Source of the DNA: Escherichia coli
Lineage (GTDB): Bacteria > Pseudomonadota > Gammaproteobacteria > Enterobacterales > Enterobacteriaceae
NCBI RefSeq assembly: GCF_016026235.1
Contig: NZ_CP065613.1
Length of the DNA: 64,000 nt
Direction: 5' to 3' (one strand)
Shown piece by piece: positions 28,901-34,900 of this stretch. The position numbers were made by a program. Position 1 is the first letter of the stretch; each line of letters starts with the position of its first letter.

Positions 28901-31900
28901 ATGCTGCAAACCAGATACGCCGTGACCGTCCGCTGACACATGAAGAGCTGATGCACCATGTGCCGGGGATTTTCGGGGAAGATAAACACACGTCCCGAAG
29001 CCAGAACTATACGTACATCCCCACCATCACCGTACTGGAAAGTCTGCAGCGGGAAGGCTTCCAGCCATTCTTCGCCTGCCAGACCCGTGTGCGCGACCTG
29101 GGCCGCCGGGGATACACAAAACACATGCTGCGTCTGCGGCGGGCCGGAGAGATAAACGGAGAACATGTCCCTGAAATCATTCTGCTCAACTCCCATGACT
29201 GTACCTCCAGTTACCAGATGCTGCCGGGTTACTTCAGGTTCGTCTGTCAGAACGGATGCGTCTGTGGTCAGTCTCTGGGGGAAGTGCGTGTTCCGCATCG
29301 GGGAAATGTGGTGGACAGAGTCATTGAAGGGGCTTACGAGGTGGTGGGCGTGTTTGACCGGATAGAGGAGAAGCGTGATGCCATGCAGTCGCTGGTCCTG
29401 CCGCCACCGGCACGCCAGGCGCTGGCACAGGCGGCACTGACTTACCGTTATGGTGACGAACATCAGCCAGTCACCACCGCTGACATTCTGACACCACGAC
29501 GCAGGGAGGATTACGGTAAAGACCTGTGGAGCGCATATCAGACCATCCAGGAGAATATGCTGAAAGGCGGAATTTCCGGCCGCAGTGCAAAAGGAAAACG
29601 TATCCACACCCGTGCCATTCACAACATCGACACCGATATTAAGCTCAACCGCGCATTGTGGGTAATGGCAGAAACGCTGCTGGAGAGCCTGCGCTGATGC
29701 AGCATGTCCCTGAAAGCGTGATTCAGGCACCAGAATCACCCGACGCCCCGGAGGCGCTGCCGGGGTGTCGTTCCATTTCTGATGATGACCTGTGCGCCTG
29801 GTGTACCCGTCTGCTTTACCGTCCCGGAGAAATCAGTCTGTGCAGACTGAGTATACAGGCAATGGCATCTGGCCATCCGTCTGTGACCGGAACGGTTACG
29901 CGTACGGCTGTCCGGAATTTCAGCCGAATATCATTCATCCCTGATATTACTGGGTCATCACGGTCAGTGATGAACGTGATGTTGCCAGCTCCCGACCTTT
30001 ACTCCCTCTCATTTATTCACATTACAAGGATTTCATACATGAAAACATTGTCTCAGAACACCACCGCTTCGGCCTGTGCACCGGAGACTGGCCTGCAACA
30101 ACTGGTTGCCACCATTGTCCCTGATGAACAGCGCATCAGCTTCTGGCCGCAGCATTTTGGCCTCATTCCACAGTGGGTCACCCTGGAACCCCGTGTCTTC
30201 GGCTGGATGGACCGTCTTTGCGAAAACTACTGCGGTGGTATCTGGAATCTGTACACCCTGAACAACGGCGGGGCATTTATGGCACCCGAACCGGATGACG
30301 ATGATGACGAAACATGGGTACTGTTCAATGCCATGAACGGTAACCGCGCTGAAATGAGCCCGGAAGCCGCCGGCATTGCTGCCTGTCTGATGACGTACAG
30401 TCATCATGCCTGTCGTACGGAGTGTTATGCCATGACGGTCCATTATTACCGGCTGCGGGATTACGCCCTGCAGCATCCAGAATGCAGCGCCATTATGCGC
30501 ATCATCGACTGAATGGAGGCAGGGACAATGCAGCAGCTTTCCTTTCTGCCCGGAAACATGACGCCCGGCGAGCGCAGCCTCATTCAGCGGGCCCTGAAAA
30601 CCCTGGACCGCCATCTTCATGAACCCAGCGTGGCCTTCACCTCCACGCATGCGGCACGGGAATGGCTGATTCTGAACATGGCGGGACTGGAGCGTGAAGA
30701 ATTCCGGGTGCTGTATCTGAATAACCAGAATCAGCTGATTGCCGGTGAAACCCTCTTCACCGGCACCATCAACCGCACGGAAGTCCATCCCCGTGAAGTG
30801 ATTAAACGCGCCCTGTATCACAATGCCGCTGCTGTGGTGCTGGCACACAATCACCCGTCCGGTGAAGTCACACCCAGCAAGGCAGACCGCCTTATCACGG
30901 AACGTCTGGTACAGGCACTGGGCCTGGTGGATATCCGGGTGCCGGACCATCTGATAGTCGGTGGCAGCCAGGTTTTCTCCTTTGCCGAACATGGTCTGCT
31001 TTAACCCGTCACAACCACATCACACCTGTTTTCACTTTTATCTTCTGTCTTCAGAGGTATCCCACTATGAAAATCATCACCCGTGGCGAAGCCATGCGTA
31101 TTCACCGTCAGCATCCGGCATCCCGTCTTTTTCCGTTCTGTACCGGCAAATACCGCTGGCACGGCAGTGCTGAAGCGTATACCGGTCGTGAAGTGCAGGA
31201 TATTCCCGGTGTGCTGGCCGTGTTTGCAGAACGCCGTAAGGACAGTTTTGGTCCGTATGTCCGGCTGATGAGCGTCACCCTGAACTGATGTTCCGTCACC
31301 CGGAAAACGAGTACGACTGGCTGAGCTCAGACGCCGCTGTGGATGAGGCCCTGCTCATAAACGAATACACCTTTACCGAAGGCGGTCTGCGCGCCGGCTG
31401 ACCTGTCATCGTTAAACCATTCTTAACCGATTTTCTGTGAGGATTTTATCGTGTCAGACACACTCTCCGGGACAATGCTTCCCGACGACAATCACGACCG
31501 CCCCTGGTGGGGGCTGCCCTGCACCGTAACGCCCTGTTTCGGGGCACGTCTGGTGCAGGAGGGTAACCGGTTGCATTACCTTGCCGACCGTGCCGGTATC
31601 AGAGGCCTGTTCAGCAATGCAGATGCGTACCACCTGGACCAGGCCTTTCCGCTGCTGATGAAACAACTGGAACTCATGCTCACCAGCGGTGAACTGAATC
31701 CCCGCCATCAGCATACCGTCACGCTGTATGCGAAAGGTCTGACCTGCAAAGCTGACACCCTCGGTAGCGGTGGTTACGTTTATCTGGCTGTTTATCCGAC
31801 GCCCGAAACGAAAAAGTAAACCACCGGAATAACCCTCTGCTACGGCCTGGTGTTTTCACCACGCCACTTTCCCGTTTTTTATCTCTGCATATCAGGAAAA

Positions 31901-34900
31901 TCTTCAGTATGAAAACATTACCCGATACACACGTACGGGAGGCATCGCGCTGCCCGTCTCCCGTCACCATCTGGCAGACTCTGCTCTCCCGACTGCTGGA
32001 CCAGCATTACGGCCTTACACTGAATGACACACCGTTTGCCGATGAACGTGTGATTGAGCAGCATATTGAGGCAGGCATTTCACTGTGTGATGCGGTGAAT
32101 TTTCTCGTGGAAAAATACGCGCTGGTGCGTACCGACCAGCCGGGATTCAGCACCTGTCCCCGCTCTCAGTTAATAAACAGTATTGATATCCTCCGGGCTC
32201 GCCGGGCGACCGGCCTGATGGCCCGCGACAATTACAGAACGGTAAATAACATTACCCTGGGTAAGCATCCGGAGAAACGATGAAACTTTCCCTGATGCTG
32301 GAAGCCAGCAGCATTAACGTGCGGACGCTGAACATGGGGCGCATTGTCGTTGACGTCGATGGTGTTAATCTCGCTGAACTGATTAACGTGGTCTGCGACA
32401 ATGGTCACTCCCTTCGTGTTGTTGATGAATCTGACCGGGTCTCAACAGACTGCACGCCACCATTTGCTGCCCTGACCGGCATACGCTGCAGTACCACGCA
32501 TATCACTGCAAAGGACAACGCCTGGCTGTACTCGCTGTCACACCAGACCAGTGACTTCGGTGAATCAGAATGGATTCATTTCACAGGTAGCGAATATCTG
32601 TTACGTACCGATGCATGGTCGTACCCGGTTCTGCGGCTTAAACGCCTGGGCCTGTCAAGAACGTTCCGTCGTCTGGTCGTCACTCTCACCCGGCGTTATG
32701 GCGTCAGTCTCATTCATCTGGACGCCGGCGCAGAATGTCTGCCGGGTTTACCCACTTTCGACTGGTAATCAGGACAAAAGACACTGGATGAAATTATTAA
32801 CCACAGAAACGGCGCTGGATATTCTGATTGCGTGGCTGCAGGACAATATCGACTGCGAATCGGGGATTATCTTTGACAACGATGAGGATAAAATGGATTC
32901 AGCAGCACTGTTGCCCTGTATTGAGCAGGCCCGGCAGGATGTCCGTACCCTGCGTCATCTGCACCAGAACCGGTGAATCTCACTCATCATACTTCATTCC
33001 ACTGACGCCAGCCTGAACAGGGCTGGCGTTTTCATTTATCTGCAAAAAGGAATATCGATTATGTCTGATATCACAGCCTCCCGTCCGGAAGTGGTCAACG
33101 GGCATACGGAAGTTATCTGCTCAACCAGTATCCACCACATTCTGGCTGTACGAAAAAGTACACTGCTGCAAATCGACACACTTATCCGGCAACTGGCTGA
33201 AATCTCAGTTCTGACGGAAAGCATTGGAGGTAAAACCACCCGGGACTGGGCCATGAAACAGAATTTTCGCTGCGGCTGCTGGCTCATGGAGAAACCTGAA
33301 ACGGCAATGAAAGCCATCACCCGCAACCTTGACCGTGAAATCTGGCGTGACCTGATGCAACGTTCCAGGATGCTTTCCTTAATGGATGCGCAGGCCCGTG
33401 ATACATGGTACCGGTCACTGGAGTACGATAATTTTCCGGAAATCAGCGAAGCGAACATTCTGAGCACATTTAAACAACTGCACCAGAATAAGGATGAGGT
33501 GTTTGAGCGGGGAGTGATCAACGTCTTCAGGGGACTGAGCTGGAATTATAAAACCAACTCTCCCTGTAAATTTGGAAGTAAAATCATTATCAACAATCTG
33601 GTGAGATGGGACCGGTGGAGATTTCATCTTATCACCGGACAACAGACTGACCGACTCGCCGATCTGGAAAGAATGCTACATCTGTTCAGCGACAAACCGA
33701 TTCCCGACAACCGGGAAAACATCACTATTCGTCTGGATGGTCACATCCAGTCCGTTCAGGGTAAAGAGCGCTATGAAGACGAAATGTTCATCATTAAATA
33801 CTTTAAGAAGGGATCTGCACACATCACTTTCAAAAGGCTGGAACTGATTGACAGAATTAACGATATAATAGCTAGGCACTTTCCTTCTGAGCTCTCAGCC
33901 TGATCCCGAATGCGATTTCCTTTCGATATCAAAAGGGATTGCGGGTATAATTGAGGGTACATTTTTAATCAAACCAAATAAATTAGATTAATATCAATAT
34001 GATAAAAGAAATTTTCGATTCCGAGTCCGGCACCACTAATTCTTAAGAACCCGCCCACAAGGCGGTTTTTTGCTTTTGGATCTGACAATAACCTTCACGA
34101 AAAAAATTAGCTTATAAAGTCTGGGGGAATTACTCTCGCCACGTTAACGAGAGTAATTTTATTGATATTAATCTCCTGATACTTTACCCCCGTCCAAACT
34201 CCAGCCGCTGCACATTCACCATCCCAGGCTTCTCAGCAGCACTGACATCAATTTGTGTCACCCGCAGCGCATATTTTTCATCCAGTGCGTTTAACCATTT
34301 CAGCAGGTCATTAAACACCACAGGTTCTATCCAGACCTGAATATTCTCCCCACGCTCGGCTATCCGCCTGATGACCACCGAGTGCGCGGAAGCACTGTCA
34401 CTGATGACCCGCGATACCTGCGCAGGAGTTGTTGTGGCAGATTTTCGCGCTGCAATAATATCCGGCGCGGCGTTCTTCAGTCGGGTGTTCATTGCCACCA
34501 GCTGCTGCAACATCGTCTCCTGTTGTTCTATCTGTTCGCTCAACGGCTGCCAGATGAGGACGTAATATCCGACGCTAAACAGGAACACCACCGCTGCCAG
34601 TAACATGCCCTTTTCACGCGGAGAACGCCCCGCCAGGTGTTGTGCCAGCCAGTGTTCGCCACGGCTTAACTGGCGTTCACGCCATTGCTGAAAATAGTGA
34701 ATAAATTTATCGCGTAACATGTTATTTCCTCCGCAACGTTACGCCGCCGGAAACCGCATCACCCTCTTTCTGTAACGCGTCCTGTTGCACAACATAATCG
34801 GTTGCCAGTGCACTACGCAGTTTGTCGAAACTGGCAAAGTTTGCTGCCCGCAACTGGAGGTGAAGCGTCTGGCGTTTTTGATCAAAGGTGAAACCACGCA

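Follow-up and report, generated by a model that had tools for sequence, protein, structure and literature searches.

The window analysed here, a 64,000-nucleotide stretch of an Escherichia coli contig (NZ_CP065613.1), carries an antitoxin gene, cbeA (yeeU), directly upstream of a toxin gene, cbtA (yeeV), on the same (+) strand (Table 1). By sequence comparison, the surrounding block is at the attR end of a pheV (tRNA-Phe) genomic island that also holds aerobactin and Ag43 genes. The module reads DUF932, ArdB/KlcA, RadC-JAB, DUF987, cbeA, cbtA, DUF5983, DUF957, DUF4942, and the six genes of the CP4-type module within it, from DUF932 to the toxin, are all present, on one strand, in the same order and near the island end. 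The attR call was made by eye, against the empty site in FDAARGOS_943 with its intact pheV and flank: the repeat starts 113 nt downstream of the final island gene and adjoins yghD/gspM, and from attR on the flank is 100% identical to that empty site.

Table 1. Features of the cbeA-cbtA block and its surroundings, numbered from the first letter of the window
Feature	Coordinates	Strand	Description
yeeR-family gene	25418..27940	+	840-aa open frame, intact; L004 annotates "YeeR family protein" at same position
irmA pseudogene	28016..28470	+	1-nt deletion in C run at ~28200; tblastn in two frames, 98% identity
DUF905 pseudogene	28545..28774	+	+2 nt at ~28555; in-frame 6-nt deletion at ~28696
DUF932 gene (yfjQ/yafZ-like)	28876..29697	+	273 aa; PF06067 E=1e-50
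81-aa hypothetical ORF	29697..29941	+	frameshift, +2 nt at ~29852; tblastn in two frames
antirestriction gene (ArdB/KlcA family)	30039..30512	+	157 aa; PF03230 E=2.9e-37
RadC-like JAB gene (yeeS/yfjY-like)	30528..31004	+	158 aa, annotated-type start; PF04002 E=1.4e-44
DUF987 gene (yeeT-like)	31067..31288	+	73 aa; PF06174 E=1.5e-40
DUF8835 3' remnant	31288..31398	+	last 37 codons, within DUF987-cbeA gap
cbeA (yeeU)	31451..31819	+	type IV antitoxin, 122 aa, GTG start; PF06154
cbeA-cbtA spacer	31820..31908	+	89 nt; holds cbtA ribosome-binding site AGGA
cbtA (yeeV)	31909..32283	+	cytoskeleton-binding toxin (by homology), 124 aa; PF06755
yeeW-like DUF5983 gene	32280..32768	+	162 aa; PF25638 E=9e-29, PF19419 E=3e-19
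DUF957-like small gene	32788..32976	+	62 aa; tblastn 88% to annotated DUF957 protein, strain 48
terminator-like hairpin	33004..33030		downstream of DUF957-like gene
DUF4942 gene	33061..33903	+	280 aa, intact, last island gene; PF13708 E=1.9e-65
attR	34016..34040	+	direct repeat of tRNA-Phe (pheV) 3' end, island boundary

A preliminary description of this DNA had placed an intact cbeA/cbtA pair at 31451-32283, and these limits proved exact to the base, with both products matching their Pfam profiles at full length. CbeA aligns to positions 1-100 of 101 in the CbeA_antitoxin profile (PF06154; E=4.5e-53, 178.4 bits, cut-off 27) and, over residues 1-121, is nearly identical to the YeeU of known structure (PDB 2H28; E=1.1e-77); its gene starts with GTG at 31451, 8 nt downstream of a GAGGA ribosome-binding site, and its stop codon ends at 31819. 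CbtA covers the whole CbtA_toxin profile (PF06755, 1-112/112; E=6.4e-62, 206.9 bits, cut-off 25), from an ATG at 31909 to a TGA ending at 32283. The alignment with K-12 yeeU/yeeV that had been proposed as a check gave 93% identity for CbeA and 87% for CbtA, with YpjF and YkfI more distant from the toxin (63% and 59%). We found nothing that contradicts the CbeA/CbtA assignment, and we put at about 0.93 the probability that the locus is a genuine and intact type IV toxin-antitoxin pair, CbeA/CbtA (YeeU/YeeV), belonging to the CP4-44 subfamily and set in a conserved accessory module that occupies the attR end of a P4-like pheV island. The pair is ordinary and already known: the exact proteins are deposited in NCBI, the antitoxin named CbeA and the toxin assigned to the CbtA family, and a search that found 13,897 places in all puts the family in ~91% of complete E. 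coli genomes, typically in three copies each. The exact allele combination of the window is in no complete RefSeq E. coli genome.

The genes upstream of the pair follow the conserved order that had been described for them (DUF932, antirestriction, RadC-like, DUF987), on the agreement of Pfam, PDB, K-12 CP4-44 and annotated genomes, and all six named genes of the block, the pair included, were verified as full length. The naming of the antirestriction gene as KlcA was right as to family (PF03230), but the protein is, by structure-database match, nearer to ArdB of E. coli (PDB 2WJ9, E=7.5e-112) than to plasmid KlcA (2KMG, E=5.5e-21), a remoter member of the same Pfam family. For the RadC-like gene, the open frame begins at 30513, and its translation matches PDB 2QLC (E=4e-25) and contains the motif HNHPSG...S..D. 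That the block is complete holds for the six named genes but not beyond them, because the 81-aa ORF is frameshifted and DUF8835 survives as a 3' remnant only, seen in a DNA alignment and by tblastn, where it is 78% identical to the L004 product (residues 178-214); at this position the DUF8835 gene is full length in loci L012 and L004. PADLOC defence models gave no match among the nine block proteins, and the one match, a weak one, was of YeeR to the candidate family PDC-M09B (E=6e-6). An NCBIfam scan named RadC alone, and tblastn detected no second copy of the block within the window.

Downstream, the start of the yeeW-like gene overlaps the cbtA stop by 4 nt (ATGA), likewise in K-12 and in the alleles L002, L003 and L004; the DUF957-like protein had no Pfam match in the copy searched. 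From the AGGA before cbtA, the ATGA overlap and the hairpin after the DUF957-like gene, we infer that cbeA and cbtA are probably co-transcribed with yeeW and DUF957. A simple scan for sigma-70-like promoters on the + strand upstream of cbeA returned none and is uninformative, because the total number of sites found was below the shuffle expectation. The 89-nt spacer compares with 88 nt in the K-12 cbeA-cbtA pair and 20 nt in pairs of the YpjF/YkfI type, and its mean column identity is 92% over five alleles, among which a structured RNA was not indicated (fold z=-1.06, not significant; 0 covarying pairs). An Rfam scan for RNA elements around the pair, covering 20000-36000, found only IsrC/IS102 at 21960-22163, upstream of Ag43.

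DUF5983 could be a third component of the system, for example a second antidote or a modulator of CbtA, since its gene is coupled to cbtA through ATGA in the window, K-12 and three alleles, the hairpin follows only after DUF957, and CbtA and DUF5983 were also paired, independently, in a survey of genomes (PMC10790755). We see only a slim prospect that the toxin-antitoxin unit of the CP4-44 subfamily comprises more than two genes. Alternatively, the upstream RadC-like JAB protease could, by analogy, control the pair. LfgB, the CP4-57 homologue of this RadC-like JAB protein, reportedly cleaves the antitoxin MqsA.

The same gene order recurs in K-12 CP4-44, CP4-57 and CP4-6, in three annotated E. 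coli islands and in 42 provirus loci. The nearest known pair, that of K-12 CP4-44, shares with the window the protein lengths (122 and 124 aa), the GTG start of cbeA at the same position, a spacer of 88-89 nt, yeeS (RadC) and yeeT (DUF987) upstream, yeeW with its ATGA overlap downstream, and Ag43 and yeeR further upstream. Unlike the window, CP4-44 is inserted at a site other than pheV and lacks DUF932, the antirestriction gene, DUF957 and DUF4942; its yeeR (510 aa, against 840) abuts yeeS, and its yeeW retains only 64 aa. The YfjZ/YpjF (CP4-57) and YafW/YkfI (CP4-6) pairs likewise belong to both Pfam families, lie at a prophage or island end, have DUF932, antirestriction, RadC-JAB and DUF987 genes upstream, and encode toxins with C15 and F65, but their identity to the window pair is only 59-64%, their spacer is 20 nt, no DUF5983 gene follows, and their toxins are shorter (109-113 aa) and lack the C-terminal tail. 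In the pheV and serU/serX islands of strain 48, SCU-105 and the blood isolate AF3, the module order from Ag43 to DUF4942 is identical to that of the window, and strain 48 also has the same yghD/gspM junction; these islands give the best DNA matches, at 92.5% across the 5.3-kb block and 95.1% across the 1.5-kb toxin-antitoxin segment. The pattern of damage is the opposite, however: the other E. coli islands have IrmA intact and DUF905 at least partly so, and DUF4942, intact in the window, carries a frameshift in strain 48 and SCU-105, the two annotated genomes nearest to the window.

Several neighbours of the pair had been described as broken, and we found five genes disrupted by frameshift or deletion: iucB (frameshifted), yeeP, irmA (whose reference protein matches PF18673), DUF905 and the 81-aa ORF, the last of which is fused in frame to the antirestriction ORF by its frameshift. 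Three of these neighbour indels, which add 2 nt or remove 11 nt, are hence not homopolymer sequencing errors; the idea that all of the frameshifts are sequencing artefacts is ruled out for these three, whereas those in irmA (C run) and yeeP (G run, position 21297) could be artefactual. A 5.9-kb gsp flank that is 100% identical to another genome, with no indels, also bears against sequencing artefacts.

Intactness had been taken to suggest selection for the block, an argument that does not stand on its own: if 4-5 disruptions fall at random in 12.9 kb, all of them miss the pair, at 744 nt, with P ~0.74-0.79, and for the six named genes the figure is ~0.30-0.39; since chance escape is thus about 0.3-0.8, the intactness of one copy is no evidence of selection. 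The presence of the block genes is far beyond chance, but the contrast between intact pair and decayed neighbours is not. Selection finds other support. Across the block genes the dN/dS ratio ranges from 0.03 to 0.46, in each case well under 1, with values of 0.28-0.41 for cbeA and 0.16-0.38 for cbtA (for the two, Fisher p from 0.03 down to 1e-7), 0.03-0.13 for DUF987 and 0.06-0.10 for DUF932; the yeeR-family gene gives 0.09-0.20. Together with a gene order conserved in 42 further loci, these sequence-level signals support purifying selection on the pair and block.

These data bear on the possibility that the pair is an intact but idle passenger, recently acquired and barely expressed in a decaying island, and whole by luck. 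The five disrupted genes and the high probability of chance escape fit such a history, as do the low transcription of the K-12 homologues, whose antitoxins can be deleted without harm (PMC5371832). Related loci point both ways, with 2 of 40 toxins truncated and one antitoxin carrying a stop, but 38 of 40 toxins not cut short and the cbeA-then-cbtA order kept in every related locus for which upstream DNA is available. The latter observations, like dN/dS values significantly below 1 in every comparison, speak for the family and not for the window copy, and on balance we consider an idle passenger unlikely.

For the preferred reading, an intact type IV pair, the published mechanism most likely holds for this allele by analogy with its homologues. 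Toxicity and neutralisation have been shown for all three K-12 pairs (PMC5371832), and CbtA-FtsZ and CbtA-MreB interactions have been published for K-12 (PMC5624674). By homology to the K-12 proteins, CbtA would bind the H6/H7 loop of FtsZ and the flat double-protofilament face of MreB, thereby blocking both division and elongation, and CbeA, with no sequestration of the toxin, would bind FtsZ and MreB polymers and promote their bundling, offsetting the toxin. The latter role follows Masuda et al. (2012), who, as cited in PMC5624674, describe K-12 CbeA as protecting the targets through FtsZ/MreB bundling without binding the toxin. A look for newer reinterpretations of CbeA/CbtA in the literature (phage defence and similar) brought up nothing that alters this model.

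Residue F65, required for FtsZ binding in CbtA, YpjF and YkfI (PMC5624674), is kept in the window CbtA and in all 40 related toxins. At residues 14-15 the window has R14-C15 where K-12 CbtA has S14-R15, and many positions among the first 20 residues are unlike K-12, whose N-terminal segment is divergent. That the K-12 R15 region arose from the common allele by a compensated frameshift was considered and ruled out, since the DNA alignment shows a generally divergent segment. Because R15C alone in K-12 CbtA, 87% identical to the window protein, leads to filaments and to complete loss of the two-hybrid signal with MreB (PMC5624674), a toxin with Cys15 might act on division only, binding FtsZ but not MreB and producing filaments instead of lemon-shaped cells. 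Yet Cys15 is the majority state, found in 35 of 40 related loci, with the K-12 Arg15 in the minority; YpjF, natively C15, binds MreB and blocks elongation, and C15R is without effect in YpjF or YkfI (PMC5624674). With the N-terminal 20 residues differing so widely from K-12, the determinants may lie elsewhere, and we judge a division-only toxin improbable.

That the pair stabilises the pheV island by addiction, residual toxin arresting cells that lose the island by excision, is more doubtful still: toxin-antitoxin pairs on mobile elements often act in this way, and this one sits where an integrase-type island ends, at attR, with counterparts at the ends of CP4-6, CP4-44 and CP4-57, but for addiction the antitoxin must be labile and must neutralise the toxin itself, whereas CbeA, by its published mechanism, acts on the targets, neither CbeA nor CbtA autoregulates, and the left end and integrase of the island lie outside the window.

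As an intact type IV pair, the locus has little significance beyond its correct annotation, being one more allele of a widespread family. It marks the distal end of a pheV pathogenicity island with aerobactin genes (among them the frameshifted iucB), Ag43 and the frameshifted IrmA. For the family, the K-12 toxin used in mechanistic work carries the minority Arg15, and the MreB-binding determinants mapped there may not transfer to typical alleles.

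The interval 31451-32283 is filled exactly by two plus-strand ORFs, cbeA followed by cbtA, as the preliminary description had it. The product of the first matches Pfam CbeA_antitoxin (PF06154; E=4.5e-53, profile positions 1-100 of 101) and that of the second CbtA_toxin (PF06755; E=6.4e-62, positions 1-112 of 112). Alignment with K-12 MG1655 yeeU/yeeV from the CP4-44 prophage gives 93% identity for CbeA and 87% for CbtA, whereas the other K-12 antitoxins, YfjZ and YafW, are 64% and 61% identical to the window CbeA, and the other toxins, YpjF and YkfI, 63% and 59% identical to the window CbtA. 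In addition, the intergenic spacer is 89 nt long, compared with 88 nt in CP4-44 and 20 nt in YpjF/YkfI-type pairs (our count over 40 loci; PMC5371832). On spacer length and identity, the pair is therefore assigned to the CP4-44 subfamily, CbeA/CbtA proper. The GTG start of cbeA, preceded by GAGGA, lies at the same codon position as the K-12 start, where one allele has ATG. By sequence, the window CbeA matches the solved YeeU structure 2H28 (E=1.1e-77, residues 1-121) as well as 2INW and the YfjZ structures 2JN7 and 2EA9; no solved structure was found as a relative of the window CbtA, and no second copy of the pair within the window.

The spacer (31820-31908) is conserved like coding sequence (92% mean column identity, five alleles) and holds a small invariant hairpin, GGC.UGGUG UUUU CACCA.GCC. 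Neither a significant fold nor covariation was detected in it across five alleles, and an Rfam search returned no family near the pair. A simple promoter scan gave fewer sites in total than the shuffle expectation, none of them a sigma-70-like site on the plus strand ahead of cbeA.

Features of the module and its island surroundings (window positions)
Feature	Position	Strand	Details
iucABCD	81-5818	minus	island cargo
iucB	3157-4096	minus	11-nt deletion ~3811 vs otherwise identical reference
yeeP GTPase	20983-21856		+1 G ~21297
IS102/IsrC small RNA	21960-22163		Rfam, 252 bits, full-length match
Ag43	22184-25303		island cargo
irmA (interleukin-receptor mimic protein A)	28016-28470		-1 C in C5 run ~28200, frameshift
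DUF905	28545-28774		frameshift +2 nt ~28555; in-frame 6-nt deletion ~28696
DUF932	28876-29697	+	273 aa; PF06067, E=1e-50
81-aa Cys-rich hypothetical ORF	between DUF932 and antirestriction gene		+2 nt (TA) ~29852
Antirestriction	30039-30512	+	157 aa; PF03230, E=2.9e-37
RadC-like JAB	30528-31004	+	158 aa; PF04002, E=1.4e-44; frame open from 30513
DUF987	31067-31288	+	73 aa; PF06174, E=1.5e-40
cbeA	31451-31819	+	122 aa; GTG start (ORF list)
cbtA	31909-32283	+	124 aa; ATG start (ORF list)
DUF5983 (yeeW-like)	32280-32768	+	162 aa; start overlaps cbtA stop as ATGA
DUF957-like small gene	32788-32976	+	62 aa
DUF4942	33061-33903	+	280 aa; final island gene

CbeA, CbtA and DUF5983 proteins identical to those of the window are already deposited in NCBI under consecutive accessions and the expected names, on 23-28 contigs (one of 5.07 Mb). 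Homologues of the 1.5-kb segment occur in 4,952 of the 5,426 complete E. coli genomes, with 3 places as the per-genome median, and no homologue exceeds 95.1% DNA identity. The segment thus combines alleles in an uncommon way, within a module that is itself very common and well characterised.

Pfam matches place DUF932, antirestriction, RadC-like and DUF987 genes upstream on one strand in the order first described, and all six named genes of the block are intact. The module nevertheless occurs in a fuller form than this block, in which DUF8835, a gene of ~214 aa, is reduced to its last 37 codons (31288-31398; 78% amino acid identity) within the 162-nt "intergenic" gap that separates DUF987 from cbeA. 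Other islands (L004, L012) carry a full-length DUF8835 there, whereas the K-12 gap is shorter still (73 nt); in one related provirus locus (L010, 4008-6357), part of the DUF8835-cbeA-cbtA segment is duplicated in tandem. The name KlcA given to the antirestriction protein holds only at family level, because the protein is nearly identical to E. coli ArdB (PDB 2WJ9, E=7.5e-112), with plasmid KlcA (2KMG, E=5.5e-21) a more distant relative. No block protein matched a PADLOC defence model.

A tblastn comparison of the window with intact versions of these proteins encoded by other islands upheld the contrast with damaged neighbours: iucB, yeeP, irmA, DUF905 and the 81-aa ORF are disrupted. The iucB deletion would frameshift the aerobactin acetyltransferase, with iucA, iucC and iucD intact, and the yeeP insertion lies at a homopolymer site, where sequencing error is possible. 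A 284-aa ORF (29658-30512) was rejected as an artefact of the frameshift at ~29852, which puts the 81-aa ORF in frame with the antirestriction gene.

Selection to maintain the block had been suggested from this intactness, which by itself is no evidence. Given 4-5 disrupting events over the yeeP-DUF4942 stretch of 12.9 kb, chance would leave the 744-nt pair unhit with P=0.74-0.79 and the six named genes (2739 nt) with P=0.30-0.39. Independent of intactness, Nei-Gojobori comparison of the window genes with four other alleles supports constraint on the family, with dN/dS of 0.28-0.41 for cbeA, 0.16-0.38 for cbtA, 0.03-0.34 for the four upstream genes and 0.26-0.46 for yeeW, and a significant synonymous excess for cbeA and cbtA (Fisher p 0.03 down to 1e-7). 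Among 42 IMG/VR provirus loci coding for a CbtA relative, those whose DNA is long enough all preserve the order (DUF932)-(DUF905)-antirestriction-RadC-DUF987-CbeA-CbtA. Decay does occur among relatives: 2 of 40 toxins are shortened to 87 aa, and a stop interrupts one antitoxin. L043 and L047, K-12-type alleles with toxins cut to 87 aa, each have a truncated yeeW alongside.

The pair sits in the usual attR-proximal module of a well-known aerobactin/Ag43 pheV-type island. A repeat of the tRNA-Phe 3' end lies at 34016-34040, the point from which the window and E. coli FDAARGOS_943 are collinear at the pheV-yghD junction; that strain has the empty site, and its 5.9-kb gsp flank is 100% identical to the window's. 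No tRNA gene was found within the window, so the left end of the island lies beyond position 1. Further cargo comprises IS fragments, a yfjI-like gene, yeeP and a yeeR-family gene. The latter (25418-27940) encodes 840 aa (510 in K-12 YeeR) and had no Pfam or NCBIfam match; its sole hits, weak ones, were to PDC-M09B, a candidate defence family of PADLOC (E=6e-6). The IsrC/IS102 RNA closely precedes Ag43, an arrangement shared with K-12 CP4-44, and is overlapped by a 1091-aa ORF (22028-25303), the Ag43 reference alignment beginning at 22184. An IS4/Tn5-type DNA-binding protein gene (7845-9088) is split by a ~1.2-kb insertion containing a 272-aa ORF (8228-9046), and an IS66-family element (~13299-15264) is frameshifted.

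CbtA binds each of two targets independently, the H6/H7 loop of FtsZ and, on MreB, the flat double-protofilament surface; F65S abolishes the first interaction, R15C the second, and only the double mutant is non-toxic (PMC5624674). CbeA stabilises FtsZ and MreB bundles by binding them and not the toxin, the type IV mechanism (Masuda et al. 2012, as cited in PMC5624674). All three K-12 toxins are toxic, their antitoxins cross-neutralise, and the K-12 pairs show low transcription and no autoregulation by either partner (PMC5371832). By homology, the window CbtA would bind FtsZ and MreB, and CbeA would bundle these targets instead of binding the toxin. F65 is kept in the window CbtA and in 40/40 relatives. 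The window protein has Arg14 and Cys15 (codon 15, 31951-31953), and a loss of MreB targeting is possible. It is not the best bet, since YpjF, with C15, still binds MreB, and C15R is without effect in YpjF and YkfI (PMC5624674). Cys15 is the majority residue (35/40 related loci); Arg15 is characteristic of the K-12-type allele and, in K-12 CbtA, falls within an N-terminal segment that is divergent overall.

The ATGA overlap of the cbtA stop and the yeeW start (32280-32283), which K-12 and three further annotated alleles share, together with a terminator-like hairpin (33004-33030) that has a T-rich tail and follows DUF957, suggests a cbeA-cbtA-yeeW-DUF957 transcript. The conserved translational coupling between cbtA and DUF5983 is the only loose thread worth noting. 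A published survey also paired CbtA with DUF5983 (PMC10790755), and LfgB, the CP4-57 homologue of the RadC-like JAB protein, has been reported as a protease cleaving the antitoxin MqsA; coupling, pairing and this report give a functional unit of more than two genes a small probability.
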